From Bacteroidales bacterium (GTDB taxonomy: Bacteria; Bacteroidota; Bacteroidia; Bacteroidales; PUMT01): DNA of 64,000 bases. The stretch spans positions 4,241-68,240 of the forward strand of contig JAWODJ010000114.1 in the NCBI GenBank assembly GCA_046483315.1. Direction: 5' to 3'. Both the position numbers and the translations under genes were made by a program. This document shows, piece after piece, positions 21,301 to 64,000 of the stretch. Numbering within the stretch: the stretch's first letter is position 1; each line of letters starts with the position of its first letter. The notes under the pieces were generated by a model. It was given only the letters and a program-made list of their open reading frames with translations, made no database searches and was not told where the DNA came from.

Positions 21301-21872
21301 TGCTTGTTTTGGATACTGAGGTTTACAGTAATACCGGGGGACAGGCATCGAAGTCCACTCCGATAGGAGCTGTTGCAAAATTCGCTGCTTCCGGTAAGCG
21401 GATCAGGAAAAAAGACCTTGGTGTTATGGCTATGAGTTACGGATACGTATATATTGCCCAGGTTGCAATAGGGTCAAGCCAGGCTCAATTTCTCAAGGCA
21501 GTAAAGGAAGCAGAGTCATATCCCGGTCCTTCTGTTATTATTGCCTATTCACCATGCATAAATCATGGTCTCAGGCACGGAATGGGTAAGACTATTGAAG
21601 AGAGTAAAAGAGCTGTCGAAGCGGGTTACTGGACAAACTGGCGCTATAATCCTCTGATTGAAAATGAAGGAAAGAATCCCTTTGTGCTTGATTCCAAGGA
21701 ACCTGACTGGAGTAAGTTTCAGGATTTTCTAAAATCTGAGGTACGGTATACGTCTCTTCAGAAAGCTTTCCCGGAGGTGGCTGCTGATTTATTCAAAGCT
21801 GCTGAGGAGAATGCCAGATGGAGATACAGGAGCTATGTCAGGATGGCCTCGATGGATTTTTCCAGTGCATAG
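18339..21872 (+). CDS. nifJ: Pyruvate:ferredoxin (flavodoxin) oxidoreductase, single-polypeptide type
   Basis: 1177 aa. N-terminus [26 protein letters not shown], two ferredoxin CxxCxxCxxxCP motifs ([24 protein letters not shown]), and the TPP motif [10 protein letters not shown]. Confidence 0.95.
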   Translation: [1177 protein letters not shown]

Positions 21873-44463: not shown

Positions 44464-45486
<1,023 letters not shown>

Positions 45487-49238: not shown

Positions 49239-50525
49239 ATGATCTTGAGAAAACATATAATCACAGTCCTGGCCTGTCTTTTTGTTTTATCTTATAAAAC
49301 ACCTTTGCAGGCTCAAATACCGGCTTCTGACCAGGATTCACCTCTGGTGTTGCAAGGAGGCACAATTATTACAGTAACAGGTGATAATATTCCGGAAGGT
49401 ACTATTGTGTTTGAAAACGGAATAATAACTGCCGTAGGCATTGAAGCTGATATCCCTGAAGGTGCAGAGATTGTTGATGTGAGCGGAAAGTTCGTGTACC
49501 CTGCTATGATACATGCCCGCAGCTCACTTGGATTGTCGGAGATTGGAAGAGTAACTGAAACTGTCGATCTGAATGAGCACGGCAGCATTAATCCAAATGT
49601 CCGGGCATGGGTGGCGTATCATGCCGAAAGTGAACATATACCTCTTGCACGTACTCATGGTATTGCCGTTACCGTTGCAACTCCTGCAGGAGGAATTATT
49701 TCCGGGTTATCTGCTGCTATGCTGACTGACGGTTGGAACTGGGAGGAGATGACCTTAAGTTCTCCGACGGCTATGGTTATTAACTGGCCCGATATGTCGA
49801 ATGCAAGGGTAAGGGATAATGCATTAAAGGAGTTGTCTGAAGCTTTCCTTTCGGCGCGAAGATATATGACTGCAAAGAAAGCTGCCGGCAGCAGGGGAGT
49901 GCCCTATCTTAAAACGGATGTCAGGTGGGAAGCTATGATACCTGTTTTGGATGGTAGTATACCTGTTCATATATATGCCAGTGACCTGCGACAAATTCAG
50001 GCGGCAATTCACTGGGCAGAAAAGGAAAAAGTAAAGATGGTGCTTGTCGGTGCCAGGGATGCGGGATATGTTTTGCCACAGATAAAGGAAAAAAATATAC
50101 CGGTAATAGTTACTCCTGTAATTAACGGACCTTCCAGACAATGGGAAGAGTATGACAAAAGCTATACGCTGCCTTCAATGCTATATGAAGCCGGTATTGA
50201 ATATTGCATTGCAGGCGATTTTGCTGCGGCAAATGCCATAAGACTTGCACATCATCCTGCTTCCGCGGTGGCATTCGGACTGCCACAGGAGGAAGCAATA
50301 AAGACCATTACTCTCTATCCCGCCCGTATCCTTAACCTGGATGACAGGATGGGATCACTGGAGAAGGGAAAGGATGCCTCACTGATGGTGACGGACGGGA
50401 ACCTCCTTGAATTATCCACCCGTGTGGAGCAAGTCTACATACAGGGACGTCGCATTGATATGTATGATAAGCACAGACGTTTATACGACAGGTATCAGGA
50501 AAGATACGGAGAGATGAAGGATTGA
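49239..50525 (+). CDS. Secreted amidohydrolase-superfamily protein
   Basis: 428 aa with a signal peptide. GSLEKGKDASLMV C-terminal motif. Paired with the preceding gene, 35 nt apart. Confidence 0.75.
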   Translation: MILRKHIITVLACLFVLSYKTPLQAQIPASDQDSPLVLQGGTIITVTGDNIPEGTIVFENGIITAVGIEADIPEGAEIVDVSGKFVYPAMIHARSSLGLSEIGRVTETVDLNEHGSINPNVRAWVAYHAESEHIPLARTHGIAVTVATPAGGIISGLSAAMLTDGWNWEEMTLSSPTAMVINWPDMSNARVRDNALKELSEAFLSARRYMTAKKAAGSRGVPYLKTDVRWEAMIPVLDGSIPVHIYASDLRQIQAAIHWAEKEKVKMVLVGARDAGYVLPQIKEKNIPVIVTPVINGPSRQWEEYDKSYTLPSMLYEAGIEYCIAGDFAAANAIRLAHHPASAVAFGLPQEEAIKTITLYPARILNLDDRMGSLEKGKDASLMVTDGNLLELSTRVEQVYIQGRRIDMYDKHRRLYDRYQERYGEMKD

Positions 50526-50685
50526 TCTTTCCCCTGTTTTATATGGATTCTGTATTCGGCGGCTATCGGGTGCAAACTAAAGATGTGGTTATATTTCCCT
50601 TGAGGTCATACGGATGTTGACCGCGGTTGAACTTTTTTGTTTTATAAGCGTTTCCTGTTTGATTAAATTATATGATATTATTAGG

Positions 50686-51519
50686 ATGAATCTGAAAGAA
50701 AAGAATGTAATTATTACGGGAGCCACATCAGGAATAGGCAGGGAGACCGCCATAGCTCTTGCCAGGGAAAATTCCAGTATTGTAATGCCCGTAAGGGATA
50801 TTGAGAAAGGGGAACGGATTAAAAAACAGATTATCGGACGTTCGGGGAATCCCGCCATATATGTTATGGAATGTGATCTTGCTTCATTTGACTCGATAAG
50901 GAGTTTTTCTGCTGATTATAAAAAGAGGTTCGGACAGTTGCATGTGCTGATAAACAATGCGGGTATCTGGAAACAGGAAAGGGATGAGACAAGGGATGGA
51001 ATAGAGATGAATTTCGGGGTTAACCATCTTGCTCCCTTCCTTCTTACCAGCCTGCTGCTGGATGAGCTGCGTTCAGGAGCCCCGTCGCGGGTGATAAATG
51101 TCTCTTCAGAAGCACATCGCTATACAAGGATGAATTTTGATGATCCCGAAGGAAAGAAAAAATTCAGCAGTTTTCAGTCATACGGACAGTCAAAGCTGGC
51201 TAATATTTTATTTACAAGATATCTTGCCGGTATGCTCAGAAAGGATGGTGTTACTGTAAACTGCCTTCATCCGGGGGTTGTTGACACCAATCTTTTTGAA
51301 AATATGAATCCTTTGCTAAGAAAAATTTCCGGACTATTTATGACGAGTCCCCGAAAAGGAGCCGAAACCACTGTTTATCTTGCAACTTCCCCGGATATAA
51401 ACGGACAGACCGGCCGGTACTTTGTCAGGAAGAAAGATAAAAAACCATCCCGTGCCGCCCTTGATGAGAAATCCGCTGAAAAACTTTGGGAACTGAGCAT
51501 GAAATACGTCCATCCATAA
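50686..51519 (+). CDS. Short-chain dehydrogenase/reductase (classical SDR, retinol-dehydrogenase-like)
   Basis: TGATSGIGR, NNAG, YGQSK. The ATG at 50686 (MNLKEKNVIITGA) is preferred over the track start at 50614, which adds an atypical hydrophobic extension. Confidence 0.85.
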   Translation: MNLKEKNVIITGATSGIGRETAIALARENSSIVMPVRDIEKGERIKKQIIGRSGNPAIYVMECDLASFDSIRSFSADYKKRFGQLHVLINNAGIWKQERDETRDGIEMNFGVNHLAPFLLTSLLLDELRSGAPSRVINVSSEAHRYTRMNFDDPEGKKKFSSFQSYGQSKLANILFTRYLAGMLRKDGVTVNCLHPGVVDTNLFENMNPLLRKISGLFMTSPRKGAETTVYLATSPDINGQTGRYFVRKKDKKPSRAALDEKSAEKLWELSMKYVHP

Positions 51520-51563
51520 AATACTTTTTAGGCCACGAGCATTTTTTTGCAAAGATCTTTATC

Positions 51564-52064
51564 ATGGAACAAAGAGGTGACAAAAAGGTGTATCAGATAT
51601 TAAGTGAGCTTGAAATTGAATATGATTACCATGAGCATCCTGCAGTACCCACTGTTGACGAGGCATCTAAATACTGGCAAAATATTGAGTCGACACACTG
51701 TAAAAACCTCTTTTTTCGCAATCACAAAGGGAACAGACATTACCTGGTTATTTTAGAGTATTCCAATTCATTGAATATAAAAGATCTGGAGCACAGACTG
51801 AAACAGGGAAAACTTTCATTAGGCTCACCCCGCAGGTTGATGAGGTATCTGAAACTGCAGCCGGGGTCTGTTTCTCCTTTCGGACTGATACATGATACGG
51901 AAAATCATGTGCATGTTTTTCTCGATGAGAACCTGAGGAGATCCGAAAGGATAAGTTTTCATCCGAACCTTAACACTGCATCGCTGATAATTTCATATGC
52001 TGACTTTGAGAAGTTTATGCTATGGACAGGGAATACTATTGAATACGTCAGGTTGTATGACTGA
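51564..52064 (+). CDS. YbaK/ProX-type aminoacyl-tRNA editing domain protein
   Basis: 166 aa from the ATG at 51564. HCKNLFFRN ... YLVIL ... GSVSPFGL. The track start at 51486 overlaps the SDR gene. Confidence 0.7.
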   Translation: MEQRGDKKVYQILSELEIEYDYHEHPAVPTVDEASKYWQNIESTHCKNLFFRNHKGNRHYLVILEYSNSLNIKDLEHRLKQGKLSLGSPRRLMRYLKLQPGSVSPFGLIHDTENHVHVFLDENLRRSERISFHPNLNTASLIISYADFEKFMLWTGNTIEYVRLYD

Positions 52065-52191
52065 TCATATCCCGTTTGAAAAGCCTGTTAAACCGTTCTT
52101 TTCCCCGAAAGTGATATGAACGGACTATTGATCGTTTTTTGGGAGACGCAGTAACATAAGGGATTTATTTGTTTGAGTGGTTTCTGGGCAG

Positions 52192-53376
52192 CTATATGTA
52201 TTCAATGATGACCTCTTTCAGGAATTTCTCTTCCAGCTTGCGTGCGATCCGTTTCAGTACCGTTCGTCTTATCTCAAGCTCTACCGGAAGGTTAGGGTCC
52301 TGGTGTGCAATATTTATCTTTGTTCCGATAATTATTTTTATCTCATCACTCTCCAGCAGCAGTCTTACTATCTGATCAGCCGGCCCCTTACCGGGCACGT
52401 AATTCTGGTTGTACTCATTAAGTATTTTTGAGACTTTACTGAGCGTCAGTATACCTTCGGTTACAAGATCAATGCCTTCCATATATGAAACGGGCGGCAG
52501 TTCGGGGTCATGGAACTCAAAGGTGTCTTTTATGCTGATGTTGAATTCCCGGGCAACAATATCGCCGGTGGTGCCGCCCGACAGGATCTTCTTTCCCTGA
52601 AATTCCTTTACTATTGCAGCCAGTTTACTGTCATTATCCTCATCAAAGGGCGGACCGCTGCAGAGAAGAAGTTTCCTGGGCTGGCGGAAATACAGGACGG
52701 CACATGATGTATCATCCTGGGCATTGTAATTGTCGTTTTTGAATGCAGCATTGAGTATTCTTGCGGCAAGTTTCTGTGCCGAAATATCGGACTGTTGTTC
52801 AATTATATCTGCTATAAACTTGTGTACATTTTCCCATCCCCACCCGAAAGGGTATTTTCGGGATCCCATGCCCGACTGGGTGATCCCATCAGAGCAGATA
52901 ATGATCCTGTCTTCCTTGCGGGGATGAAAATGGCAGCTTTTTATCTCTTTCCCTTTGTTTTTTTCTGAGCTGAGTATAAGGCAGTTCCATTCGGCATCAA
53001 GAGGCTTGCTTCCTCTCATAAGAAAAGAGCCCGGGTTGTCATATTCCAGTATGCTGGTTCTTGCACTCATCTCTATATCTACAGCGGTAAAGGTGGAATA
53101 ACTTATTTTTCTTACACTGCAGACCGGGAGAGTGTTCATTATGATCTCAGATATACGGGTTACATCTTTGTGTTCCCTGGTGAAATTCATTGCCATTGAT
53201 GCGGTAAGGGTCGCCAGGATATTAGCTTTCACCCCGTGTCCCATGCCATCTGAAAGAACGGCGACAATCCTGTTCTCCTCCTTTATTCTCTGTGACAGGA
53301 AAACATCACCGCAGATCCTCTCTTTACCGTGATTTTTTTGCTGGTACCCCACTTCCACATAGAAGTTATTATCCAT
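52192..53376 (-). CDS. PP2C/SpoIIE-type serine phosphatase with an unassigned ~160-aa C-terminal domain
   Basis: 394 aa. Metal-binding motifs CGDVF, LSDGMGHG, CSDGI, DDTSCAVL in residues 1-230. C-terminal part (ILSGGTTGDIVAREF...) unassigned. The start overlaps the upstream sensor gene's stop by 8 nt. Confidence 0.75.
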   Translation of the reverse strand: MDNNFYVEVGYQQKNHGKERICGDVFLSQRIKEENRIVAVLSDGMGHGVKANILATLTASMAMNFTREHKDVTRISEIIMNTLPVCSVRKISYSTFTAVDIEMSARTSILEYDNPGSFLMRGSKPLDAEWNCLILSSEKNKGKEIKSCHFHPRKEDRIIICSDGITQSGMGSRKYPFGWGWENVHKFIADIIEQQSDISAQKLAARILNAAFKNDNYNAQDDTSCAVLYFRQPRKLLLCSGPPFDEDNDSKLAAIVKEFQGKKILSGGTTGDIVAREFNISIKDTFEFHDPELPPVSYMEGIDLVTEGILTLSKVSKILNEYNQNYVPGKGPADQIVRLLLESDEIKIIIGTKINIAHQDPNLPVELEIRRTVLKRIARKLEEKFLKEVIIEYI

Positions 53377-55237
53377 TCTTTTCCGGTTTTTGAGGCATTT
53401 GATAAGATTCTATAATGCTGTTAAGCATAGCTTCGGTCTCTGAGGCACCTTCGCCCAGAAGGAATCCTATCTTCTGGACCAGTTCAAGGTTTTTGTCAAT
53501 TACATCGGTAACCCTTTTTATTACCTCTTCCTTTCTTACTTCCGGTACATAGAGATCTCTTATAACGGCACCGACAATCTTGTTTTTCCTTATGGTGAAT
53601 ATTGAAACATTATAGAGAATATCATTGAAATGGACATCACGGTTAACAATATTGTCATCATTTGTCAGGACATATGAGAAAAGGTTGTGGAAGTTGTACG
53701 GCAGAAGGGTTTTTAGGTCAGCGCCCTCGAGTCCGGGAATTACATCCTCAATCATTTTCACCTCTTCGTCCAGGATATTTATAAAGCTTTTGTTGGCCTG
53801 GATCACCTTCAGTTCATTATCAACCAATACTATGCTTGACGGGAGTTTCTCAAGCATTGTACGGGTGGTTTCAAAAGATTCTCTTGCAAGCTGCTGGTCA
53901 CGCCTTGCATTTTTTTCCGATTTTTTAAGTGCTGCCTGGGTTTCAGCCAGTTTCTGGTTGGTATCCCTGAGAGTCTTTATGTAGTCATGACGGTTTTTAA
54001 GGGTGAAGGTGAGGCACATTTCCGTTTTTGCAAGTCCCTGTGCCACTGCTACCGCGAAATCCCTGCAGGAAGTGTAACCACAGGATGCGCAGCCTATCTC
54101 ATCAACGTTGTGTTCTTTGCCAATAATCTGCAGTATCTCCTGAATCTTGTCTTCATCCGGGTATGGCAGTCTCTGATCATCCTTCTTAAATTTTCTTGAC
54201 AGGTCAAGATTGCTGAATTCATCCATCGCTGCTTCCCATTCCTTCATATCAAAGTCCGAAAGCCTTTTTTTAGCATAATCCACAACAAGGGCGTGACGCA
54301 GGTATTTATCACCTCCTCCTGAGGTGCCGGGTCCCATAATGCATCCTTCATTGTAAAACAGGTTGAAATGCTTTTTGATTGAATCGATATGTTTTTCAAA
54401 TTGTCTGACCGCTTCAAGCATGTTGTTTCTTCCCTCTGCAGTGATTACATTACCGGAGAGCAGATTCTGATCTATGCCGGAAGCTTCCAGTATGCCCGTA
54501 CTTATGGGGTAAATGGAACCCTTATAGCCTATCGGAGGATCAAAATCCGATAACTCCACTTTCTTTTCAGTGATCTTGAATTCGGCGAAAAGTTCCCGTA
54601 ATTCGGAAAAGGTGAGAACTGAATCAATTCTGCCGTCATCACGGTATTTTTTTCCCTCTTTTTTGGTTTCAATACAGGGTCCTATATACACAACCTTTAG
54701 GTCCTTTCCGTATTTTTTTCTTGCCACTTTTGCTGTGGCTCCCATGGGAGACACTATGGGAGCAAGATTTTCGGTCAGCTCAGGATGGAATTTTTCTATG
54801 TAGGAAACCACCGACGGACAGTTGGCACTAATGTAATATTTACCTTTGAATCCTGTGAACAGCTCATGATATTTTCTGGCCACCAGATCTACTCCGAAAG
54901 AGGCTTCAAGCACGTAATCAAAGCCAAGTGCCCTTATCATTTCCACAAATTTCCTGTAATCGGTTATGTCATGGAACTCTCCTGATATACTGGGTCCGCA
55001 GATTGCAGCAACCTTGTTTTTTGAATTTAGCAGGGTTTTTGTTTCCTCTCTGGAATCGCTGTAGCTTATTGCCCCGGGAGAGCAAACTTTCAGGCAGTGA
55101 CCGCAACCAATGCATGTATTGGATATTACCTCCGGATAATCCTGGTGAGCCTCAACTTTTATAGCATTTACCGGACATATTCTGACGCAGGCATATGAAA
55201 GGTTACATTTTTCTTTGTCAATATTTATAAGGGCCAT
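53369..55237 (-). CDS. Sensory-type [FeFe]-hydrogenase-like protein with C-terminal PAS domain (HydS-like, phosphatase-linked class)
   Basis: 622 aa. N-terminal 2x ferredoxin motifs, then a Fe-hydrogenase large-subunit-like domain (ISANCPSVV, YIGPCIETKKE, NEGCIMGPG). Extra Cys motif CASCGYTSCx16C, a coiled region, and a PAS-like block (LPSSIVLVDNELKVIQANKSF...). Confidence 0.8.
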   Translation of the reverse strand: MALINIDKEKCNLSYACVRICPVNAIKVEAHQDYPEVISNTCIGCGHCLKVCSPGAISYSDSREETKTLLNSKNKVAAICGPSISGEFHDITDYRKFVEMIRALGFDYVLEASFGVDLVARKYHELFTGFKGKYYISANCPSVVSYIEKFHPELTENLAPIVSPMGATAKVARKKYGKDLKVVYIGPCIETKKEGKKYRDDGRIDSVLTFSELRELFAEFKITEKKVELSDFDPPIGYKGSIYPISTGILEASGIDQNLLSGNVITAEGRNNMLEAVRQFEKHIDSIKKHFNLFYNEGCIMGPGTSGGGDKYLRHALVVDYAKKRLSDFDMKEWEAAMDEFSNLDLSRKFKKDDQRLPYPDEDKIQEILQIIGKEHNVDEIGCASCGYTSCRDFAVAVAQGLAKTEMCLTFTLKNRHDYIKTLRDTNQKLAETQAALKKSEKNARRDQQLARESFETTRTMLEKLPSSIVLVDNELKVIQANKSFINILDEEVKMIEDVIPGLEGADLKTLLPYNFHNLFSYVLTNDDNIVNRDVHFNDILYNVSIFTIRKNKIVGAVIRDLYVPEVRKEEVIKRVTDVIDKNLELVQKIGFLLGEGASETEAMLNSIIESYQMPQKPEKNG

Positions 55238-55242
55238 ATTAT

Positions 55243-55494
55243 TTATCTTATACTTAACGATTGTGTAAGTATTTTAACTACCTCTTCCGGTTTGACTCCT
55301 TCAAAAATTTTATCTCCTATTTTCAGAACAGGGCCTTTCTCACATCTGTCAAAGCAACGGCTTCCGTGAAAGAAAAATTTATCTTCCAGGTTGTGATCTT
55401 TAAGAAATTTTTCAATAATGCCCATACAAATCCTGTTTCCTCTTGAGAAGCATGAACTGCCAAGGCAGATAACTATTTCCTGTTTGTCCTGCAT
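55243..55494 (-). CDS. Thioredoxin-like [2Fe-2S] ferredoxin
   Basis: 83 aa from the internal ATG (MQDKQEIVICLGSSCFSRGN...GSRCFDRCEKGPV), with four Cys in the NuoE/Trx-like ferredoxin pattern. The track start at 55584 adds 30 hydrophobic residues, abuts the operator palindrome and contains a -7 box, so the shorter form is preferred. Confidence 0.6.
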   Translation of the reverse strand: MQDKQEIVICLGSSCFSRGNRICMGIIEKFLKDHNLEDKFFFHGSRCFDRCEKGPVLKIGDKIFEGVKPEEVVKILTQSLSIR

Positions 55495-55548
55495 TAATCG
55501 CGGGTTGATTTTTTTAGTAAGTAAGACAACAAATACCTGACATGTAAG

Positions 55549-55556
55549 CAAAAGTA
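55549..55556 (-). promoter_or_regulatory. -7 box TACTTTTG (minus strand) for the sensor/phosphatase operon
   Basis: Plus-strand CAAAAGTA. About 55 nt upstream of the ATG at 55494. Confidence 0.3.
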
Positions 55557-55585
55557 ATAAATATTTTAAAGAAATACATGTCATT

Positions 55586-55613
55586 AAACATTGTTAAATT
55601 TGTAACAATGTTT
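55586..55613. promoter_or_regulatory. Candidate Rex operator: AAACATTGTTA-AATTTG-TAACAATGTTT
   Basis: Perfect 11-bp inverted arms. The core TTGTTA-N6-TAACAA has the same half-sites and spacing as the TTGTTAAnnnnTTAACAA variant of the Rex box. The spacer carries TAAATTTG, a plus-strand -7 box (55595-55602). rex lies at the end of the same cluster. Confidence 0.55.
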
Positions 55614-55632
55614 GCATAATAACAATAAATTT

Positions 55633-55653
55633 TTGTAAAATTGTGTTTTACAA
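55633..55653. promoter_or_regulatory. Second palindrome TTGTAAAA-TTGTG-TTTTACAA
   Basis: 8-bp perfect arms, 39 nt upstream of the hydC ATG. Half-sites are Rex-like (TTGTnAA) but the spacing is 3 nt longer than the consensus. Confidence 0.3.
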
Positions 55654-55691
55654 GTAATATTTTCAATTATTCCGGTTAATAATAATTCATT

Positions 55692-56156
55692 ATGGATGAA
55701 AGGACATCCCTTATTCTTTCGCATTATCCGAAGGGACACCGTGATTTTTTAATACCAATATTGCAGGATATTCAGGAGCAATATGGTTATTTATCAGAAT
55801 CCTCCGTCATTGAAGTAGGTAATTACCTCGATCTTCCTTCAAGTAAGATATTTGGTCTGGCTACCTTTTATAACCAGTTCCGTTTTGAACCCAGGGGACG
55901 TTTTCACATACGTCTCTGTCACGGGACCACCTGTCATGTAAATAATTCCGGTAACATTCTGAAGGAGCTGAAAAAGATATTAGGGATCAATCCGGGCGAG
56001 ACCACAAGGGACGGAATGTACAGCCTGGAAATTGCAGCTTGTATGGGAGCATGTCATTTGTCTCCGCTAATTCAGGTAAACGATCAGTATCATACAAAAA
56101 TTGAACCTGAAAGTATCAGGGATATATTGGATTCTTATACAGAAGGGGAAGAATAG
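55692..56156 (+). CDS. hydC: [FeFe]-hydrogenase NuoE-like [2Fe-2S] subunit (HydC)
   Basis: 154 aa. LCHGTTCH ... CMGACHLSP cysteine pattern of the NuoE/HydC family. Confidence 0.85.
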   Translation: MDERTSLILSHYPKGHRDFLIPILQDIQEQYGYLSESSVIEVGNYLDLPSSKIFGLATFYNQFRFEPRGRFHIRLCHGTTCHVNNSGNILKELKKILGINPGETTRDGMYSLEIAACMGACHLSPLIQVNDQYHTKIEPESIRDILDSYTEGEE

Positions 56157-56158
56157 CT

Positions 56159-58111
56159 ATGTCTGCAAAAATCCATATACCGGTAGATAAGGATTATTTT
56201 GTTACAAATGTCCTTATGAACGAGTCGGTTGAGCTTCCTGCTGATGTGGAAAAGACCCTTGAATATGTGCGAAGGGATAGAGTTAAATATCCCGTGATCT
56301 TTGTTGGTACAGGAAGTTGCGGAATAATATCGGGTGCAGGGGAAACTCTTGATGAAACAAACAGATATTTGACTGAAAGAAACATAAAAGCTGATGTTGT
56401 TGAGACAGGCTGTACAGGTTTTTGTTCCATGGAACCGTTGGTGGAAGTTCAGTTACCCGGAAAAACAAGAGTGGCGTTCAGCCATGTTACCGCCGATAAA
56501 CTTCCCTATATACTTGACGGTATGTTCAACAGTATTGTACCCGGGGAATTTGTTTTAGGGCAGCATAAAAGTTCATCGGTGGAATTATGGAAAGATGTGC
56601 CTTTTATCGATGAGTTGCCTTTTTATTCCTTGCAATACAGGAACCTTATGAAAAACTGGGGCCGCATAAGTCCTTTCTCAATAGAAGAATACATTGCAAC
56701 AGGAGGTTACAGGTCATATATAAAAACAATAAGGAACTATACACACGAGGAGGCCTGCGATATTGTTGAAAAAAGCGGTCTTCTGGGCAGAGGCGGTGGC
56801 GGGTTTCTTACGGGAAAAAAGTGGAAGGTGGCACATTCTGTAATGACAGATCAGCGCTACCTGTTGTGCAATGCAAATGAAAGCGACCCCGGGGGATTTG
56901 CCAACAGGGCACTTATTGAAAGTGATCCACACAGACTTATTGAAGGGGTTATTATAGCTGCATATGCAATAGGCACATCCAAAGCCTATATTTATATCCG
57001 CAATGATTACATAACAGCAATTGCCAGGCTGGAGGAAGCCATAGAACAGGCAAAGGATTACGGGTTGCTCGGACATAATGTATACGGCAGCGGTGTTAAT
57101 ATTGATATTATTGTAAGAAAAGGTCCGGGTGCATTTGTTTGCGGTGAAGAAACTGCCATGATCAGCAGTATAGAAGGCAAACGTGGCATGCCCGGTCCAA
57201 AACCCCCTTATCCTGCTGTTTCTGGGTTGTTTGGCAAACCCACCGTGGTGAATAATGTAGAAACGCTGTCAAATGTTCCTTCGATCTTTGAAAACGGCCC
57301 GGACTGGTTTATGTCTGTTGGCAGTGAGTCATCAAAGGGGACCAAGATACTGGTGCTATCCGGAAGAGTTCATAATCAGGGTATAATAGAGGTGCCTCTC
57401 GGAACAAAAGTGAAGGATCTTATATTTTATGCAGGAGGGGGGGTGCCCGGCAGGAAAAGTTTCAAAGCCGTGCAGATTGGCGGGCCTTCAGGTGGATTTC
57501 TGACAGGAGAAAACATTGATATACCCTATGACTTTGAATCACTTGCGGGAGAGGACGTCTATATGGGATCGGGTGGGATGATTGTGCTTGATGAAGATTG
57601 CTGTATAATTGATACGGTAAAATACTTTATGGATTTCATCCAGAATGAAAGCTGTGGTAAATGCATTCCCTGCCGGGAAGGGACTCGCCGGATGCTGGAG
57701 GTCTATGAAAATATTACAAAACGGCCGGTAGACGAAAACGGACATTCCACACTTGAGCGGTTTAAGGGTGTAATGCAACTTGAAAGCCTGGCCGGTGTTA
57801 TTAAAGATACTTCTTTGTGCGGACTCGGACAGAAGGCACCGAACCCGGTTATCAGTTCACTTAAGTATTTCCGGAGTGAATATGAAGAGCATATTTTTGA
57901 CCGCAAATGCAGTGCAGGCGTATGCACTGAACTCAGATTGTTTTATATTGATGTGGATAAATGTACCGGTTGTACAGCTTGTGCAACAAAATGCCCTGTT
58001 TCTGCAATAATTGGTACAAAGCATCACCCTTTCTTCATTGTAGAGGAAAAGTGCATTGGCTGTGGCATATGTTATGATGTTTGCAAGTTCAGCGCCATTG
58101 GATTTAAATAA
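56159..58111 (+). CDS. hydB: [FeFe]-hydrogenase NuoF-like flavoprotein subunit (HydB)
   Basis: 650 aa. N-terminal Trx-like 2Fe-2S domain, FMN/NADH site GRGGGGFLTGKKW, 4Fe-4S ESCGKCIPCREG, and C-terminal 2x ferredoxin motifs (CTGCTACATKCP, CIGCGICYDVC). Confidence 0.9.
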   Translation: MSAKIHIPVDKDYFVTNVLMNESVELPADVEKTLEYVRRDRVKYPVIFVGTGSCGIISGAGETLDETNRYLTERNIKADVVETGCTGFCSMEPLVEVQLPGKTRVAFSHVTADKLPYILDGMFNSIVPGEFVLGQHKSSSVELWKDVPFIDELPFYSLQYRNLMKNWGRISPFSIEEYIATGGYRSYIKTIRNYTHEEACDIVEKSGLLGRGGGGFLTGKKWKVAHSVMTDQRYLLCNANESDPGGFANRALIESDPHRLIEGVIIAAYAIGTSKAYIYIRNDYITAIARLEEAIEQAKDYGLLGHNVYGSGVNIDIIVRKGPGAFVCGEETAMISSIEGKRGMPGPKPPYPAVSGLFGKPTVVNNVETLSNVPSIFENGPDWFMSVGSESSKGTKILVLSGRVHNQGIIEVPLGTKVKDLIFYAGGGVPGRKSFKAVQIGGPSGGFLTGENIDIPYDFESLAGEDVYMGSGGMIVLDEDCCIIDTVKYFMDFIQNESCGKCIPCREGTRRMLEVYENITKRPVDENGHSTLERFKGVMQLESLAGVIKDTSLCGLGQKAPNPVISSLKYFRSEYEEHIFDRKCSAGVCTELRLFYIDVDKCTGCTACATKCPVSAIIGTKHHPFFIVEEKCIGCGICYDVCKFSAIGFK

Positions 58112-58138
58112 TTTCGGGGAACTGCTAATAATTGAGTA

Positions 58139-59863
58139 ATGATTGTTAAGATTGAAGTCAATAACAGAGTAATAAAGGCTAAAAAGGGAGAAACCATTAT
58201 GTCTGCCCTCAGTGCAAACGGAATAAAGATACCTTCAATCTGCGCCATGAAGGATTTCTCCCCAACCGGTGCATGCAGAATGTGTGTTGTGGAGATTGAA
58301 GGCAGGCAGGGCCTTGTACCTTCCTGTTCCCAGCCGGTTAATGAGTGGATGAAGATCCGGACACATTCTCCCCGTGTTATTAAATCCAGAAAGACCATTG
58401 TGGAGCTGCTTCTTTCCAATCATCCTGATGATTGTCTCTATTGTGTCAGGAATGGCAAATGTGAGCTTCAGGATCTGGCAGAGGAACTTGGTGTAAGAGA
58501 GCGCCGCATAACGGGAAAAAAGAATAAATACAAACTTGACCATTCCAGTCCCTCAATTGTGCGTGATCCCGCCAAATGTATACTTTGCGGACGATGTGTA
58601 CGTGTTTGTGAGGATAAGTTATCAGTATCCGCAATTGATTTTGTTAATCGCGGAAACAATGCAATCATAGGTACGGCATATAATAAAGACCTTAATTTTT
58701 CCAGTTGTATAAACTGCGGGCAGTGCATTATGGTTTGCCCTACGGGGGCCCTTTATGAAAAAGACAGTCTTCCGGAACTTGAAGATGCCCTCAATAACCC
58801 GGATAAGTATGTGATAGCGCAATATGCCCCTTCGGTTACCGTCACACTGGCCGAGGAATTCGGGATCAAACCCGGAAAGGATGTCGGTGGATTGATAAAC
58901 GCTGCGCTGAGGAAGATCGGGTTTAACCGGATTTTTGATACCTCTTTTGCAGCTGACCTGACTGTAATGGAGATGTCGCATGAACTTCTTAAAAGAAACG
59001 ACCAGAAAGAAAAATATCCTCTGATTTCCGGATGCTGTCCCGCATGGGTAAAATTTGCCGAGCAATGGTACCCTGATCTTTTGCCGGCCGTTTCCTCCTG
59101 TAAATCACCGCAACAAATGCTGGGTGCGGTTTTAAAGGCCTATTATCCTGAAATGTCTGATATTGATTCAGACAATATCTTTTCAGTTGCAGTGGCTCCG
59201 TGTACGGCCAAAAAGTTTGAAGCCCAGAGAGAAGAGATGACCAAAAAGGGGTTGTCAGATATTGATGCCGTGCTTACAACCAGGGAACTTGCCAGACTGA
59301 TAAGGCTTTATGGTATCGATATGAATCAGATTGAACCGGAAGCAACCGATGAACCCTTCGGAATGAGAAGTTCGGCCGGAAAATTGTTCGGTGCAGCCGG
59401 GGGCATGACCGAGGCCCTTATGCGGACTCTGCCTTATGTTGCAGGATCAAAAGATCTTTCCCGGGTTAAGTTTCAGGAATTGCGCGGTGCAAAGGCGCTG
59501 AAGAAGGCAGATATTAAGATTGGCAGGAACTGTTTCAGTTTTGCTGTTGTAAGTGGAATGTCAAATGCCATAGCACTGCTTGAAGAGATAAGGGAAGGTA
59601 AAAGTGAGTACGATTTTATTGAAATTATGGCTTGTGCAGGAGGTTGCATTAATGGCGGAGGACAGCCCATAGGAGCGGATGAACATGCCGTACGGGCAAG
59701 GATGAAGGCTTTGTACGGCATTGATGACCAGGAGGCCATAAGGTATTCCCATAAGAATCAGGGAGTTGCTGAATTATATAAAAATTATCTTGGCCGGCCC
59801 ATGGGGGATGATTGTAAACAATTACTGCATACCAGTTATTCAGAAAGAAAAGTTCTGTTATAG
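58139..59863 (+). CDS. hydA: [FeFe]-hydrogenase catalytic subunit (HydA, multimeric NuoG-like N-terminus type)
   Basis: 574 aa. N-terminal 2Fe-2S, a His-ligated cluster motif (HPDDCLYCVRNGKCELQ), and two ferredoxin clusters. H-cluster motifs SGCCPAW, APCTAKKFEA, EIMACAGGCINGGGQP. Confidence 0.9.
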   Translation: MIVKIEVNNRVIKAKKGETIMSALSANGIKIPSICAMKDFSPTGACRMCVVEIEGRQGLVPSCSQPVNEWMKIRTHSPRVIKSRKTIVELLLSNHPDDCLYCVRNGKCELQDLAEELGVRERRITGKKNKYKLDHSSPSIVRDPAKCILCGRCVRVCEDKLSVSAIDFVNRGNNAIIGTAYNKDLNFSSCINCGQCIMVCPTGALYEKDSLPELEDALNNPDKYVIAQYAPSVTVTLAEEFGIKPGKDVGGLINAALRKIGFNRIFDTSFAADLTVMEMSHELLKRNDQKEKYPLISGCCPAWVKFAEQWYPDLLPAVSSCKSPQQMLGAVLKAYYPEMSDIDSDNIFSVAVAPCTAKKFEAQREEMTKKGLSDIDAVLTTRELARLIRLYGIDMNQIEPEATDEPFGMRSSAGKLFGAAGGMTEALMRTLPYVAGSKDLSRVKFQELRGAKALKKADIKIGRNCFSFAVVSGMSNAIALLEEIREGKSEYDFIEIMACAGGCINGGGQPIGADEHAVRARMKALYGIDDQEAIRYSHKNQGVAELYKNYLGRPMGDDCKQLLHTSYSERKVLL

Positions 59864-59907
59864 CCGGAAACCTGAAAAAAGAATCCCGTCTGTCTTAATT
59901 ATAATTT

Positions 59908-61899
59908 ATGTATTCTTCACATGATCATAAAAAACTTCTAATAACCCTCAAGGACCGGTGCCGGGTATGTTATACATGTGTGCGTGAGTGCCCTGCCAGG
60001 GCAATAAAGATAATTAACGGTCAGGCAGAGGTGCTGAATGAACGTTGTATAGGATGTGGTAACTGTACCCGTGTATGCAGTCAGGGTGCCAAGGTTTACA
60101 GCCGGTCGGGACCGGAGGTTACCGGTTTACTGGAATCTCCGGGAAGGGTTGCAGCAATTGTAGCACCCAGTTTTCCTGCCGAATTCACAGAAATTGAAGA
60201 TTACCGGCAATTTGTCGGTATGATGAGAAAACTTGGATTTGACAATGTTTATGAGGTTGGTTTCGGGGCGGACCTTGTTGCACTGGAATATAAAAAAATA
60301 CTTGAGGAAAAAGGTAATAAAAGGTATATATCATCTGACTGTCCGGCTATTGTAAATTATATAAGGCAATACCACCCTGACCTTGTTCCTTCACTGGCAG
60401 GTATAGTTTCTCCAATGGTGGCAATGAGCAGGGTTGTCAGGAAAAAACTCGGGAATGATATTAAAATTGTTTTCACCGGACCATGTGTTGCCAAAAAGGA
60501 AGAGTCGGATGAAGTTGATGAAGTGCTTACATTTGCCGAGCTGAGAGAGATGTTCAGTAAAAGGGATATTGCCCCCGCCGGTATCAGTTCGTCCGAATTC
60601 GATCCTCCGGCGGCAGGTAAGGGTGCTGTTTTTCCTATCAGCAGGGGACTTTTGCAGACTGTTGATATTAAAGATAATGCCTTTGAAGGGAACATAATAG
60701 TTGCCGAGGGCAGAGAAGATTTCCAGGAAGCAATAAAAGAGTTCGAAGCAGGGCTGATAGGCGGGCAACATCTGGAACTTCTTTGCTGCGAAGGCTGCAT
60801 AATGGGGCCGGGAATGTCGGAGGGAGGCAGGCATTATGTAAGAAGATCTGTTGTAAGCAATTATGTAAGAGAAAAGATAAAGAATTATGACAGGGCAGAA
60901 TGGCAAAAAAGCATTGATGAATTCGGGAGGTTAGACCTGAGATGTAAATTTGAACCTGATGATCAAAGGTTGCCTGTTCCTTCGGTGGCAGAGATTAAGA
61001 AGGAGCTTGAGAAGATGGGTAAGTTTGATGCCAGGGATTTTCTGAATTGCGGTGCATGTGGTTATGAAACCTGTGAAGAGCATGCAATAGCTATAATAGA
61101 GGGACTGGCAGAGGTTGAAATGTGTCTGCCCATGACAATAGATAAACTTCACAATTCGGTTAATGACCTGGCCGTCACCAATGAAAAGCTTGTTTCAGTT
61201 CAGCAGGCACTTAAGCAGTCAGAGAAAATGGCCAGCATGGGTCAGTTATCGGCCGGCATAGCTCATGAGTTGAATAACCCTCTTGGCGTGGTAATAATGT
61301 ATTCCAATATTATGCTTGATGAGCTGCCAAAGAATTCGGAGGCATATCCTGATTTGAAGCTCATCGTTGAGCAGGCCAACAGGTGTAAGAAGATTGTTGG
61401 CGGATTGCTGAATTTTGCCCGTAAAAACCAGGTAAATCCTGCTGATGTTGACCTGGAGAGACTTGTGAGGCAGGCATTGGATGCCATTATTATTCCGCGT
61501 AATATAAAGGTTGAAATTGATCCGGACGGAATAAATAAGAAAACTGCCCGGCTTGATTCGGAACAGATAATACAGGCCCTGACCAATTTGTTTAAGAATG
61601 CTCTTGAGGCTATGCCTGATGGTGGGGAGCTCAGAGTGGATATAAAGGATGATAACGGAAAGACAGAGTTCCATATATCTGATACAGGAACCGGTATCAG
61701 GGAAGAGGACAGGGAGAAAATATTTGAACCCTTTTATACCACAAAGGGTATTGGTAAAGGAACCGGACTGGGTCTGGCAACGACATACGGGATAGTTAAA
61801 ATGCATAACGGGCAGATCAGTGTAATATCCAATGCGGATCCGGAAAAGGGACAGACAGGGACAAAGTTCATTGTCACACTTCCTGATAACAATGTTTAA
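59908..61899 (+). CDS. Hydrogenase-like sensor domain fused to a histidine kinase (HydS-like, histidine-kinase-linked class)
   Basis: 663 aa. 2x CxxCxxCxxxC ferredoxin motifs, H-domain-like motifs ISSDCPAIV, TGPCVAKKEE, LLCCEGCIMGPG, and extra CGACGYETCx16C. Then HisKA H-box SAGIAHELNNPLG, N-box LFKNALEAM, G-boxes ISDTGTGI and GTGLGLA. Confidence 0.8.
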   Translation: MYSSHDHKKLLITLKDRCRVCYTCVRECPARAIKIINGQAEVLNERCIGCGNCTRVCSQGAKVYSRSGPEVTGLLESPGRVAAIVAPSFPAEFTEIEDYRQFVGMMRKLGFDNVYEVGFGADLVALEYKKILEEKGNKRYISSDCPAIVNYIRQYHPDLVPSLAGIVSPMVAMSRVVRKKLGNDIKIVFTGPCVAKKEESDEVDEVLTFAELREMFSKRDIAPAGISSSEFDPPAAGKGAVFPISRGLLQTVDIKDNAFEGNIIVAEGREDFQEAIKEFEAGLIGGQHLELLCCEGCIMGPGMSEGGRHYVRRSVVSNYVREKIKNYDRAEWQKSIDEFGRLDLRCKFEPDDQRLPVPSVAEIKKELEKMGKFDARDFLNCGACGYETCEEHAIAIIEGLAEVEMCLPMTIDKLHNSVNDLAVTNEKLVSVQQALKQSEKMASMGQLSAGIAHELNNPLGVVIMYSNIMLDELPKNSEAYPDLKLIVEQANRCKKIVGGLLNFARKNQVNPADVDLERLVRQALDAIIIPRNIKVEIDPDGINKKTARLDSEQIIQALTNLFKNALEAMPDGGELRVDIKDDNGKTEFHISDTGTGIREEDREKIFEPFYTTKGIGKGTGLGLATTYGIVKMHNGQISVISNADPEKGQTGTKFIVTLPDNNV

Positions 61900-61917
61900 C
61901 TATTATAATAATCAGAA

Positions 61918-62316
61918 ATGATGAATGATCACAAAAGGACAATTCTTCTGGTAGATGATGATGAGGATTATCTTTTTCAGACCAAACTTAATATCGAACA
62001 GTTTGGTTTCAGGGTCGTAACAGCTGAAAGCCAGGCAGAGGCTGAAAAACTGCTGGAGGCATTAAAGCCCGATCTTGCAATACTTGATCTGATGATGGAG
62101 AATGAGGACAGCGGTTTTATACTTGCTTTCAAAATGAAAAAAAGGTATCCCGATGTTCCGGTTATCATTGCAACAGCCGTAACTGCTGAAACAGGAATCT
62201 CCTTTGGGGTCAGTTCGGAGGAGGAAAGGAAATGGATCAGAGCCGACAAGTATATAGAAAAGGGGATAAGAGCCGATCAGCTTCATAAAGAGATCATTAA
62301 ACTGTTAAAGATTTAG
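61918..62316 (+). CDS. Stand-alone response-regulator receiver (CheY-like)
   Basis: 132 aa. LLVDDDED, acceptor context DLAILDLMM, IIATAV, and a conserved Lys region YIEKG. No output domain. Confidence 0.85.
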   Translation: MMNDHKRTILLVDDDEDYLFQTKLNIEQFGFRVVTAESQAEAEKLLEALKPDLAILDLMMENEDSGFILAFKMKKRYPDVPVIIATAVTAETGISFGVSSEEERKWIRADKYIEKGIRADQLHKEIIKLLKI

Positions 62317-62317
62317 G

Positions 62318-63436
62318 ATGGAAAAGCTTCATGTACTTGTGGTGGATGATGAGCCGGGAATATGTTCCGGCATAAGCAGGATATTGACAAAATATTCGGT
62401 GGGTTTTCCCTTTATGGATGAAAATATCGGCTTTGAAATCCAGGAAACATTTACCGGTGAGGACGCTATTAAGATAATTGACAGTAAGGCGCCTGATATT
62501 GTTCTTCTGGACAATAAGCTGCCTGGAATACTTGGAATAGATGTGCTTGAGTATATTAATAAAAAACGTCTTGAGTCGGTGGTATTGATGATAACATCGT
62601 ATGCATCTCTCGAATTGGCTGTAAAGGCCACTAATCAGGGTGCACATGATTTTATTCCCAAACCGTTCACACCCCAGGAACTCAGGTCGGCCATTGAAAA
62701 TGTCACCAAGCATATTTTCCTGAAAAGGATGACAAAAAAGCTTAACAGGGAAGGCAAACAGATCAGATTCCAGTTTCTGTCGGTACTTTCACATGAGCTG
62801 AAAGCACCACTGAATGCCATTGAAGGTTATCTCAGAATCATGCAGGACAGGCAGGCAGGAAATGATCTGGATGCTTACACAAAGATAATTGAACGTTCGC
62901 TTGTGCGTGTAAAGGGCATGAGAAACCTGATAATGGACCTGCTCGATATTACAAAGATAGAATCCGGTAAAAAGAGAAGGATGGTAGTACCTGTAAATAT
63001 TACCGGGATTGCTAAAATTTCAATAGACACAATGGGGCCGATATCAATCCAGAAAGATGTGAAAATATACCTGGATGCTCCTGAAGAGGTTAGTTTTGAT
63101 GCCGATCAGGAAGAGATCGAAATCATTTTCAATAACCTGCTTTCCAATGCTATAAAATATAATATTGAAGGAGGAAAGGTTGACTTCAGAATTGAAGACA
63201 AAAAAGAGAAGATCATTGTTTCTGTCAGGGATACGGGAATTGGTATGGGGAAGGATGAGATTCCGGCACTTTTTGATGAATTTGTCCGTATCAAAAATGA
63301 GCAGACAAAGAATATTTCAGGAAGCGGACTTGGTTTGTCGATTGTGAAAAAACTGGTCCGTCTTTATAAGGGGAGAATTAATGTGGAAAGCAGGCCGGGA
63401 GAAGGAAGTATCTTTAAAATTGAGTTTCCCAGATGA
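62318..63436 (+). CDS. Receiver-histidine kinase hybrid (REC-HisKA-HATPase)
   Basis: 372 aa. VLVVDDEPG, DIVLLDNKLPG, FIPKPF. H-box LSVLSHELKAPLNAI, N-box LLSNAIKYN, G-boxes VRDTGIGM and GSGLGLSI. Starts 2 nt after the preceding stop. Confidence 0.85.
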   Translation: MEKLHVLVVDDEPGICSGISRILTKYSVGFPFMDENIGFEIQETFTGEDAIKIIDSKAPDIVLLDNKLPGILGIDVLEYINKKRLESVVLMITSYASLELAVKATNQGAHDFIPKPFTPQELRSAIENVTKHIFLKRMTKKLNREGKQIRFQFLSVLSHELKAPLNAIEGYLRIMQDRQAGNDLDAYTKIIERSLVRVKGMRNLIMDLLDITKIESGKKRRMVVPVNITGIAKISIDTMGPISIQKDVKIYLDAPEEVSFDADQEEIEIIFNNLLSNAIKYNIEGGKVDFRIEDKKEKIIVSVRDTGIGMGKDEIPALFDEFVRIKNEQTKNISGSGLGLSIVKKLVRLYKGRINVESRPGEGSIFKIEFPR

Positions 63437-63466
63437 CATATTAATAGTTAAATTAAATATTTATTG

Positions 63467-64000
63467 ATGAAGCTACCCGGAAAAACCATCGAAAGACTGA
63501 GCCAGTACAGGAGGATACTTCTGAACTGTCTCAGCATGGGTAAAACCTATATCTATTCACATGAGCTTGCAGAAATGCTAAACCTTACGGCGGTTCAGGT
63601 AAGAAGGGATATAATGTTGATGGGATACTCCACCAGTCATAAGAAAGGTTACGATATCAGTGAGCTGGTCAATGTTATAGGTTCTATCCTTGATACACGT
63701 AAAGGTCAGAATGTCGCTGTTATAGGAGTTGGCAACCTCGGCAGGGCAATAACCGGATATTTTATGGGTAAACGCTCCAGGCTTAATATCATTGCTACTT
63801 TTGATAATGATCCTGCAAAAGTTAACAGGGTTATCTCAGGTGTTAACTGTTATCCGGTCCAGCAGCTGGCTGACCGTATAAGGGAACTTAATATTACAAT
63901 TGCCATTCTTACTGTTCCCCCCGAACATGCCGCCGGTGTTGCTGAGTCTCTGGTACTGGCGGGCATAAAAGGCATCCTCAATTTCACTTCTGTCCCGCTG
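63467..64000 (+). CDS. rex: Redox-sensing transcriptional repressor Rex (partial; runs off the right edge)
   Basis: Not in the ORF track because it is truncated. Hand translation MKLPGKTIERLSQYRRILLNCLSMGKTYIYSHELAEMLNLTAVQVRRDIMLMGY...VAVIGVGNLGRAITGY...TIAILTVPPEHA...GIKGILNFTSVPL. Winged helix plus a Rossmann GxGxxG, typical of Rex. Confidence 0.85.
   Translation, partial: MKLPGKTIERLSQYRRILLNCLSMGKTYIYSHELAEMLNLTAVQVRRDIMLMGYSTSHKKGYDISELVNVIGSILDTRKGQNVAVIGVGNLGRAITGYFMGKRSRLNIIATFDNDPAKVNRVISGVNCYPVQQLADRIRELNITIAILTVPPEHAAGVAESLVLAGIKGILNFTSVPL

Follow-up and report, generated by a model that had tools for sequence, protein, structure and literature searches.

The 64,000-nt window analysed here, from a Bacteroidales bacterium (assembly GCA_046483315.1, contig JAWODJ010000114.1, positions 4,241 to 68,240 of the forward strand), ends in a block of ten genes that includes a single trimeric [FeFe] hydrogenase, HydABC. 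Our analysis indicates that this block is probably a conserved Bacteroidales unit of 10-11 genes, in which one HydABC is accompanied by three cytoplasmic regulators: Rex, a sensory-type hydrogenase fused to a histidine kinase (HydS-HK), and an arm made up of a small ferredoxin, a second sensory-type hydrogenase (HydS-PAS) and a PP2C-type phosphatase. We hold with moderate confidence that the best overall explanation is a single regulatory block formed by HydABC, Rex, HydS-HK and the ferredoxin/HydS-PAS/PP2C arm. Rex control of the hydC promoter, through predicted sites, is the sole well-supported regulatory step.

The open reading frame (ORF) map and a Pfam scan placed all ten genes and their domains where the original prediction had located them, and confirmed the gene order, divergent layout and 8-nt overlap that it had described. 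Two divergent gene sets share an AT-rich intergenic region of 197 bp (55495-55691, GC content 0.34). The minus-strand set runs from the ferredoxin through HydS-PAS to PP2C, with the start of the PP2C gene overlapping the HydS-PAS stop by 8 nt. The plus-strand set consists of hydC, hydB, hydA, HydS-HK, a lone receiver, a receiver-kinase hybrid (REC-HK) and rex, with neighbours separated by 1-44 nt. The mechanical ORF of the ferredoxin reaches 55584. Because its orthologues are only 81-93 amino acids (aa) long, the shorter form starting at 55494, as previously proposed, is preferred.

A genome scan with HydS-HK yielded 49 loci, against which all ten window proteins were searched by tblastn; loci L050-L053 were recovered via two other homologues. 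The core, comprising hydC-hydB-hydA, HydS-HK and REC-HK, was found in about 37 loci at 53-83% identity, from Bacteroidales, Lentimicrobiaceae, one Kapaibacterium metagenome-assembled genome (MAG) and other sources. HydS-HK lay directly downstream of hydA in every locus. The closest relatives (L001-L009) were Bacteroidales MAGs, with 80-86% identity for the sensor kinase. At least 16 loci also carried rex and the ferredoxin/HydS-PAS/PP2C arm, in two arrangements. The full window layout was present in L002-L008, L024 and L050-L053; the protein behind L052 and L053 is listed for 184 contigs (289 index blocks) in public assemblies. The genes of L022 and L025-L027 were co-linear and tightly spaced, in the order hydCBA, HydS-HK, lone receiver, REC-HK, rex, ribF, (ugd), ferredoxin, HydS-PAS, PP2C. 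In L030 the PP2C gene was located upstream. The gene order is thus kept in relatives; its loss there would have counted against the original prediction. That it recurs across many independent genomes, with proteins 53-89% identical, indicates that the layout is not due to chance, and the survival of gene linkage through rearrangement argues for a shared function.

The presence of rex matched that of the phosphatase arm. Among loci with enough flanking sequence, both were found in 11, neither in 16 and one without the other in 0 (Fisher p = 8e-8). As related loci exist without them, rex and the PP2C arm are accessory. The pattern suggests a block composed of a conserved core and an accessory 'rex + phosphatase arm' module. 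The rex-less loci (within L010-L039) had features of their own. An extra receiver-only protein of ~165-172 aa is encoded directly upstream of hydC, at a distance of ~100-900 nt (e.g. L011 5244-5759), and has an insertion before beta5, like the window's lone receiver. The maturases hydG/F/E were found downstream of REC-HK in these loci, their names resting on ORF length and N-terminal sequence only.

The window's rex gene (63467-64000, plus strand) is cut by the window end, leaving 178 of about 210 aa. Pfam matched an N-terminal DNA-binding domain (Put_DNA-bind_N, E 2e-14) and a Rossmann-type NAD(H)-binding domain (CoA_binding, E 7e-21), and the GVGNLG motif of Rex is present. Orthologues of rex are 207-213 aa long and are followed by ribF (FAD synthetase/riboflavin kinase). 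In L022, L025 and L050-L053, ribF stands directly after rex and in two cases overlaps it; the window ends before this position. The association may reflect flavin supply to the FMN-dependent HydB.

Upstream of hydC we located two predicted Rex operators. Operator 1, TTGTTAAATTTGTAACAA (55591-55608), is the sole site of the TTGTTA-N6-TAACAA type in the 64 kb, 84-101 nt upstream of where hydC starts. It is abutted by operator 2, ATGTTTGCATAATAACAA (55608-55625), which has a weaker left arm. One variant of the Rex site in Clostridia is TTGTTAA-N4-TTAACAA, and operator 1 is one position away from it. Compared with the published Rex consensus TTGTGAANNNNTTCACAA (PMC6391272), operator 1 has three mismatched positions.

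These sites were conserved in step with rex. Of 11 loci with rex, 10 had a Rex-type site located 60-240 nt upstream of hydC, as against 1 of the 17 loci without rex (Fisher p = 9e-6); the background was 78 sites in 802 kb. Boxes were also found in three further rex-carrying loci (L051-L053). Tandem boxes 17 nt apart were kept in L002, L003, L006-L008, L022, L024, L025 and L050-L053, down to 55% protein identity. The conserved operator thus tracks the presence of rex, which supports a Rex (NADH/NAD+) input to the hydC promoter. In the co-linear layout no separate Rex box was found before the ferredoxin/HydS-PAS/PP2C genes.

The Bacteroidetes -7 promoter consensus is TAnnTTTG. Intergenic alignment by eye gave TAAAATTG (55636-55643, plus strand) as a candidate hydC -7 box, with an exact TAnnTTTG in more distant relatives. 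On the minus strand, TACTTTTG (55549-55556) can be read as a candidate -7 box for the ferredoxin/HydS-PAS/PP2C operon. The block GCAAAAGTAAT around it is conserved in relatives, and the TACTTTTG element is also found upstream of the GAPDH gene. The palindrome TTGTAAAATTGTGTTTTACAA (55633-55653) was considered as the site of a second regulator and rejected, as it is not palindromic in distant relatives and is better read as the -7 promoter region. A sigma-54 promoter upstream of hydC, a candidate given the resemblance of the kinase to NtrB/ZraS/AtoS types, was likewise rejected: the window and 28 related loci contained no GG-N10-GC element. A structured RNA or riboswitch was sought in the control region, and no Rfam match (E <= 0.1) was obtained in 50000-64000. 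Internal terminators and sigma-70 promoters were predicted in numbers equal to those in shuffled sequence, with a tool that does not cover Bacteroidetes promoters.

The other two regulators each contain a hydrogenase-like sensor. HydS-HK (59908-61899, plus strand, 663 aa) combines Fer4, Fe_hyd_lg_C (E 2e-46) and FeS domains with HisKA and HATPase_c, and its kinase matches in the Protein Data Bank (PDB) were ZraS and KinB. HydS-PAS (53369-55237, minus strand, 622 aa) has two Fer4 domains, Fe_hyd_lg_C (E 5e-40), a C-terminal FeS domain, a coiled coil and a weak PAS signal. Judged by their similarity, the two are paralogues: they are 44% identical over residues 8-483, a stretch that starts at the first cluster motif and takes in a common coiled-coil linker (...TN-KL---Q-ALK-SEK-A). 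Beyond the common linker lies the kinase core in HydS-HK and the PAS region in HydS-PAS.

Both proteins contain Cx2Cx4Cx16C (CGACGYETC-x16-C at 381-406 of HydS-HK; CASCGYTSC-x16-C at 383-408 of HydS-PAS), the hallmark of the sensory subclasses M2e and M2f (PMC8163306), and Pfam FeS (PF04060) was significant in HydS-HK and HydS-PAS alike. In both, C299 is substituted and Gly occupies the M353 position. Their NCBIfam scores were far under the cut-offs for catalytic enzymes, at 97 and 96 bits for group A (cut-off 406) and 166 and 190 bits for B1 (cut-off 450). On the strength of these motifs, substitutions and scores, the assignment of both extra proteins as sensory-type [FeFe] hydrogenases (group C-like, with M2f-like architecture) holds. 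Together with the Fe_hyd_lg_C matches, this agrees with the earlier reading of the pair as hydrogenase-like sensors and points away from catalytic groups A/B. In HydDB, C1 (kinase-linked), C2 and C3 (phosphatase-linked) are putative sensors (PMC5037454). Class naming is inconsistent, similar kinase-fused proteins being termed C1 in one study (PMC7768429) and C3 in another (PMC11406978). The sensory enzymes TmHydS and TamHydS hold a functional H-cluster in vitro (PMC10055695, PMC8163306).

HydS-HK looks competent to hold an H-cluster, as it has the full set of Cys ligands and an Asp at C299. Its motifs are SSDCP (the Asp at C299 being D144), GPCVAKK and LELLCCEGC; none of the four H-cluster Cys is missing and Cx2Cx4Cx16C is intact. 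SSDCP was found in all 106 readable motifs among 120 HydS-HK homologues. Groups C and D mostly have Ala at position 299 (PMC10407848), and C299D is the sole substitution there that leaves CpI and HydA1 active (PMC6226526).

The two-component proteins also have their signalling residues. The lone receiver (61918-62316, plus strand, 132 aa; Response_reg, E 1e-16) shows the pattern DD...D57...T...K, with an insertion before beta5. REC-HK (62318-63436, plus strand) consists, by Pfam, of an N-terminal receiver followed by HisKA and HATPase, with no output domain, and its receiver shows DD...D65...T...KP. The H-boxes are AHELNNPL in HydS-HK and SHELKAPL in REC-HK, and the N/G boxes DTGTGI/GTGLGL are intact. 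In about 36 of 37 loci REC-HK comes after HydS-HK; only in L032, where the contig stops just past the lone receiver, does it not. The lone receiver sits between the two kinases in most loci and is missing from L030, L033 and L036. For this reason the primary phosphotransfer is probably from HydS-HK to the receiver of REC-HK. Elsewhere the window encodes two orphan signalling proteins beside which no response regulator was noted, a cytoplasmic PAS-GAF-PAS-HisKA-HATPase kinase (23313-25745) and a seven-transmembrane receptor with an HD hydrolase domain (4729-6873).

The phosphatase arm begins with a small thioredoxin-like [2Fe-2S] ferredoxin (55243-55494, minus strand) of 83 aa with four Cys, which resembles the NuoE C-terminus (Pfam 2Fe-2S_thioredx, E 1e-7; partial NCBIfam nuoE_fam match). 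A dedicated gene of this kind was always found upstream of HydS-PAS. The motifs of HydS-PAS are SANCP, GPCIETKK and FYNEGC. Its C299 position is Asn, and among 120 homologues 84 have Asn and 29 Ala there. The PP2C/SpoIIE-family Ser/Thr phosphatase (52192-53376, minus strand, 394 aa; Pfam SpoIIE, E 8e-12) has a phosphatase domain at aa 1-230, followed by a conserved C-terminal domain of ~165 aa (residues 228-394, window 52192-52695). An AlphaFold2 model built from a multiple sequence alignment had a mean per-residue confidence (pLDDT) of 84.8; the single-sequence model reached 34. In Foldseek the top matches of the PP2C model were 3pu9, SpoIIE, RsbU, RsbX and RssB, with 3pu9, 5mqh, 3ke6 and 3w40 at E 1e-12 to 1e-9.

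The Foldseek matches covered the PP2C part alone, with none over the C-terminal domain. That domain had no Pfam match even at E <= 10 and no PDB match by sequence or profile. It is the most conserved part of the protein, with invariant GPP, GGTT, TEGILTL, GPAD, AHQDP and ELEIRRT, and is found almost solely fused behind PP2C (863 matches among 1.84 billion cluster representatives at 50% identity). It is predicted to have an alpha/beta fold and is a candidate docking or regulatory module.

The hydrogenase itself is predicted to be a bifurcating-type enzyme linked to NADH and ferredoxin. HydC (55692-56156, plus strand) is a NuoE-like [2Fe-2S] subunit (2Fe-2S_thioredx, E 7e-48). HydB (56159-58111, plus strand) is a NuoF-like FMN/NADH subunit with 2x[4Fe-4S] at the C-terminus (Complex1_51K, NADH_4Fe-4S, SLBB and two Fer4 domains; NCBIfam nuoF_fam). 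HydA (58139-59863, plus strand) is an M3-type catalytic [FeFe] hydrogenase (Fe_hyd_lg_C, E 3e-87; Fer2_4, NADH-G_4Fe-4S_3 and Fe_hyd_SSU), and its motifs SGCCP, APCTAKK and EIMACAGGC are of the catalytic type. HydA passed the NCBIfam group A cut-off (466 bits against 406) and fell just under that for A6 (760.9 against 765). The A3-type domain set was present by Pfam: 2Fe-2S, 4Fe-4S and H-domain in HydA, the FMN/NADH site in HydB and a NuoE-like HydC. The C-terminal Fer4 pair of HydB lies at residues 595-647, and loss of such HydB clusters has been tied to lost bifurcation (PMC11406978). The CpI-M353 position is Ala (VAPCTAKK) in the window's HydA and its clade at ~83% identity (7 sequences including the window), and 28 other orthologues have MPC. 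The window also encodes PFOR (18339-21872) and GAPDH (44464-45471), which would probably supply a confurcating HydABC with reduced ferredoxin and NADH. No Rex-type box was found at either gene.

Several observations weigh against reading the block as a complete H2- and redox-responsive regulatory unit. Some of them concern HydS-PAS. Its Asn296 replaces the fourth cysteine of the [4Fe-4S]H cluster (the CpI-C499 equivalent). All HydS-PAS homologues at 72-100% identity share Asn296, those at 60-64% mostly have Cys, and of 120 homologues in all, 76 have C at position 296, 41 have N and 3 have D. At the K358 position there is Thr191, Thr or Ser being found family-wide with an invariant Lys beside it. 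Because a Cys ligand is replaced and the K358 equivalent is missing, H2 binding by the window's HydS-PAS is uncertain. The first N-terminal cluster motif also has a Ser (Ser14 in CxxSxxCxxxCP), shared by 91 of 120 homologues. The PAS domain that had been assigned to this sensor stands in part: a signal was detected, with traces of PAS_9 and PAS_7, but PAS_8 scored 19-21 bits, under the Pfam cut-off of 21.8 bits. More generally, H2 sensing in vivo has never been demonstrated experimentally for any group C enzyme (PMC13104023). About 16-22 related loci lack rex or the PP2C arm.

The outputs of both arms raise a further difficulty. A search of the window, and of +/-10 kb in relatives, showed no DNA-binding response regulator, and receivers had no output domain other than a kinase (Pfam; window, and +/-10 kb in L050-L053). 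Within the same limits there was no sigma-54 promoter, STAS/anti-sigma factor or Ser/Thr kinase. For STAS/anti-sigma factors and Ser/Thr kinases, the window check covered ORFs >=200 aa outside the block and the five genes adjoining it, a cut-off above the ~110-150 aa of STAS/anti-sigma proteins; the STAS/anti-sigma check in relatives covered the called genes of L050-L053. With no output regulator, anti-sigma partner or Ser/Thr kinase found, both sensor arms would lead to targets not encoded in the block. The original prediction of a phosphorelay controlling hydCBA is thus not supported, as no output for it was found in the locus or its relatives. The broader proposal of a two-input circuit responding to H2 and NADH/NAD+ is plausible but incomplete. 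Its Rex input is backed by an operator that tracks rex, but no DNA-binding response regulator or phosphatase substrate is encoded near the sensor arms.

We propose the following mechanism. Rex would bind the tandem operator at 55591-55625, overlapping or just upstream of the hydC promoter. When NADH/NAD+ is low, it would repress hydCBA, the downstream sensor genes and rex itself, and NADH would relieve this repression. The position of rex as the final regulatory gene in the hydC operon would place the circuit under negative autoregulation. Drawn from comparison of the loci, Rex repression is the best-supported step of the mechanism. For the kinase arm, we infer that HydS-HK would report H2, or the redox state into which H2 brings its FeS chain, to the kinase core via the shared signalling helix. 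It would then phosphorylate the receiver of REC-HK, the lone receiver serving as an additional acceptor or as a phosphate sink and the final target lying outside the block. More tentatively, we infer that ferredoxin/HydS-PAS/PP2C forms a second arm, gained and lost with rex, which presumably alters the phosphorylation of some Ser/Thr-phosphorylated protein. As its H-cluster site is non-canonical, the signal read by HydS-PAS in the window clade may be redox rather than H2. For bifurcating hydrogenases elsewhere, regulation by Rex and HydS has been suggested (PMC10084766, PMC6776011).

It is also conceivable, though we think it quite improbable, that the PP2C arm and the kinase phosphorelay meet at a protein target, through H2-dependent phosphorylation of Rex or of a HydABC subunit, with the PP2C C-terminal domain as a possible docking site. 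H2, ferredoxin redox and NADH/NAD+ would then be combined post-translationally to govern how active the hydrogenase is or in which direction it runs. Such convergence is compatible with, but not shown by, the linked presence and absence of rex and the PP2C arm and the lack of a DNA-binding response regulator.

Other explanations depart from a shared regulatory block that senses H2. The sensors might read redox and not H2, with FeS chains that equilibrate with the ferredoxin pool and an H-domain that is a relic, so that the block gauges ferredoxin redox and NADH/NAD+. We regard this as unlikely. In its favour, the window-clade HydS-PAS has neither one of its H-cluster Cys (N296) nor the K358 equivalent, and the ferredoxin always encoded upstream offers a possible electron path to it. 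Hydrogenedentota C1 proteins hardly showed H-cluster motifs (PMC11406978), and the C-terminal cluster of TamHydS is unresponsive to H2 (PMC13104023). However, HydS-HK keeps the four H-cluster Cys, KK in the L2 motif and the Asp at C299 (PMC6226526), the Cys is kept in 76 of 120 HydS-PAS homologues, and the H-cluster bound by TmHydS and TamHydS in vitro is functional (PMC10055695, PMC8163306).

There is little probability that the sensors are instead extra enzyme subunits (the 'BfuT' of BfuABCT) that tune HydABC catalysis or electron flow, the kinase and phosphatase acting on the enzyme and not on transcription. This would fit the position of HydS-HK immediately after hydA in every locus, the lack of a transcription-factor output in the block, the T-subunit label used in the literature (PMC11406978) and the co-linear ribF, whose product serves FMN/FAD synthesis. 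However, 'T subunit' is merely a name, and the HydABC structures 7p5h and 8a6t were matched via the HydA chain alone. HisKA/HATPase and the receivers are canonical signalling parts with intact phospho-sites, and the PAS-type gene sits in a separate divergent operon. Finally, the PP2C arm and the two-component genes could serve unrelated processes and merely adjoin hydABC, with no shared function at all. No target of either arm was found in the block and many loci have neither the PP2C arm nor rex, but we consider this very improbable. The linkage persists across the divergent, co-linear and L030 arrangements, the sensors are both paralogues of hydrogenases, gain and loss of rex go with those of the PP2C arm, and a Rex operator is present at the hydC promoter.

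With the regulatory block as the preferred reading, its features are of uneven novelty. The claim that such a circuit had not been described in Bacteroidota did not survive: two sensory genes flanking HydABC have been reported in three isolates of the phylum (PMC11406978), and a C1 enzyme beside hnd in Petrimonas mucosa (PMC7768429). The layout and the phylum are thus not new. The statement that the signalling mechanism had not been worked out remains correct, the pathway being described as still unresolved in a study of 2026 (PMC13104023). Five details were not found in the literature searched and appear to be new, though they may still have been published: the Rex operator at the Bacteroidales hydC promoter, the way rex is gained and lost with the phosphatase arm, Asp299 in kinase-linked sensors, the Cys-to-Asn change and the phosphatase-specific C-terminal domain. 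The value of the window thus lies in comparative details such as the operator, the co-occurrence of rex and PP2C and the two substitutions, and not in a new kind of system. For sensory [FeFe] hydrogenases, the block is the most complete candidate H2-signal pathway readable from sequence. The fusion of sensor and kinase offers a direct in vitro read-out, autophosphorylation, which PAS-only model enzymes lack. The two-sensor layout also occurs in cultured Tenuifilum, Perlabentimonas and Williamwhitmania, making the predictions testable. In practical terms, the block bears on how H2 release is controlled in fermenters of sediments, digesters and guts.

Several known systems resemble parts of the block. 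In Cupriavidus necator (Ralstonia eutropha), HoxBC-HoxJ-HoxA is alike in principle, a low-activity hydrogenase signalling to a histidine kinase and on to expression of an energy-conserving hydrogenase (PMC5707799). It differs in its non-homologous [NiFe] sensor and separate kinase, and HoxA is a transcriptional activator (PMC5707799), a type of regulator that is not encoded here. The RsbU/SpoIIE partner-switching systems share the PP2C fold, but their STAS anti-anti-sigma factor and anti-sigma kinase were not found among window ORFs >=200 aa or in L050-L053.

In published accounts, Ruminococcus albus HydS is a PAS sensor beside a PP2C-type phosphatase, with H2-dependent regulation proposed and Rex as co-regulator (Zheng 2014, as summarised in PMC6776011, PMC5707799 and PMC10084766). 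In the same accounts it shares a transcript with adhE and a ferredoxin-only A1 hydrogenase and not with HydABC, a Ser/Thr kinase is described there whereas none was found here, and no kinase-fused second sensor appears. A HydS and phosphatase cluster with Rex as co-regulator has also been discussed for Hnd (PMC6776011, PMC10084766). In hfsABCD of Thermoanaerobacterium saccharolyticum and T. thermosaccharolyticum, hfsB (hydrogenase + PAS) is likewise followed by hfsC (Ser phosphatase), and deletion of hfsB shifts fermentation to ethanol, giving it a regulatory role by genetics (PMC5707799, PMC11837493). This Firmicutes operon differs in containing the catalytic ferredoxin-linked hydrogenase hfsD and in having no fused histidine kinase and no receivers. 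No HfsD-like gene follows the window's PP2C, the next genes being on the other strand.

The sensors themselves resemble HydS of Thermotoga maritima (group C, M2f) and Thermoanaerobacter mathranii (group D, M2e), which share the N-terminal 2x[4Fe-4S], the H-domain and Cx2Cx4Cx16C (PMC8163306, PMC10055695). They are also alike in the loss of C299, a small residue at M353 and a gene next to a bifurcating hydrogenase. The residue at C299 is Ala in both of those enzymes but Asp (HK type) or Asn (PAS type) here. In comparison with them, the window's PAS type lacks one H-cluster Cys and the HK type has a complete kinase core in place of PAS. All four H-cluster [4Fe-4S] Cys are conserved in the sensory type (PMC10055695), which applies to HydS-HK and not to the window's HydS-PAS.

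Two accounts concern Bacteroidota. Petrimonas mucosa ING2-E5A, a Bacteroidales isolate, has a HydDB C1 kinase-linked sensory hydrogenase near a bifurcating hndABCD; its account mentions one sensor and describes no phosphatase arm or Rex (PMC7768429). In Perlabentimonas gracilis, Tenuifilum thalassicum and Williamwhitmania taraxaci, one bfuT lies upstream of bfuC and another downstream of bfuA, with 'implications unclear' (PMC11406978). That account makes no mention of Rex, a PP2C phosphatase or receivers, and the likeness is drawn from its description of the clusters. As in our block, the clusters place a single A3-type hydrogenase between two sensors within the same phylum, and T proteins of both the PAS and the His-kinase type are described in the account.

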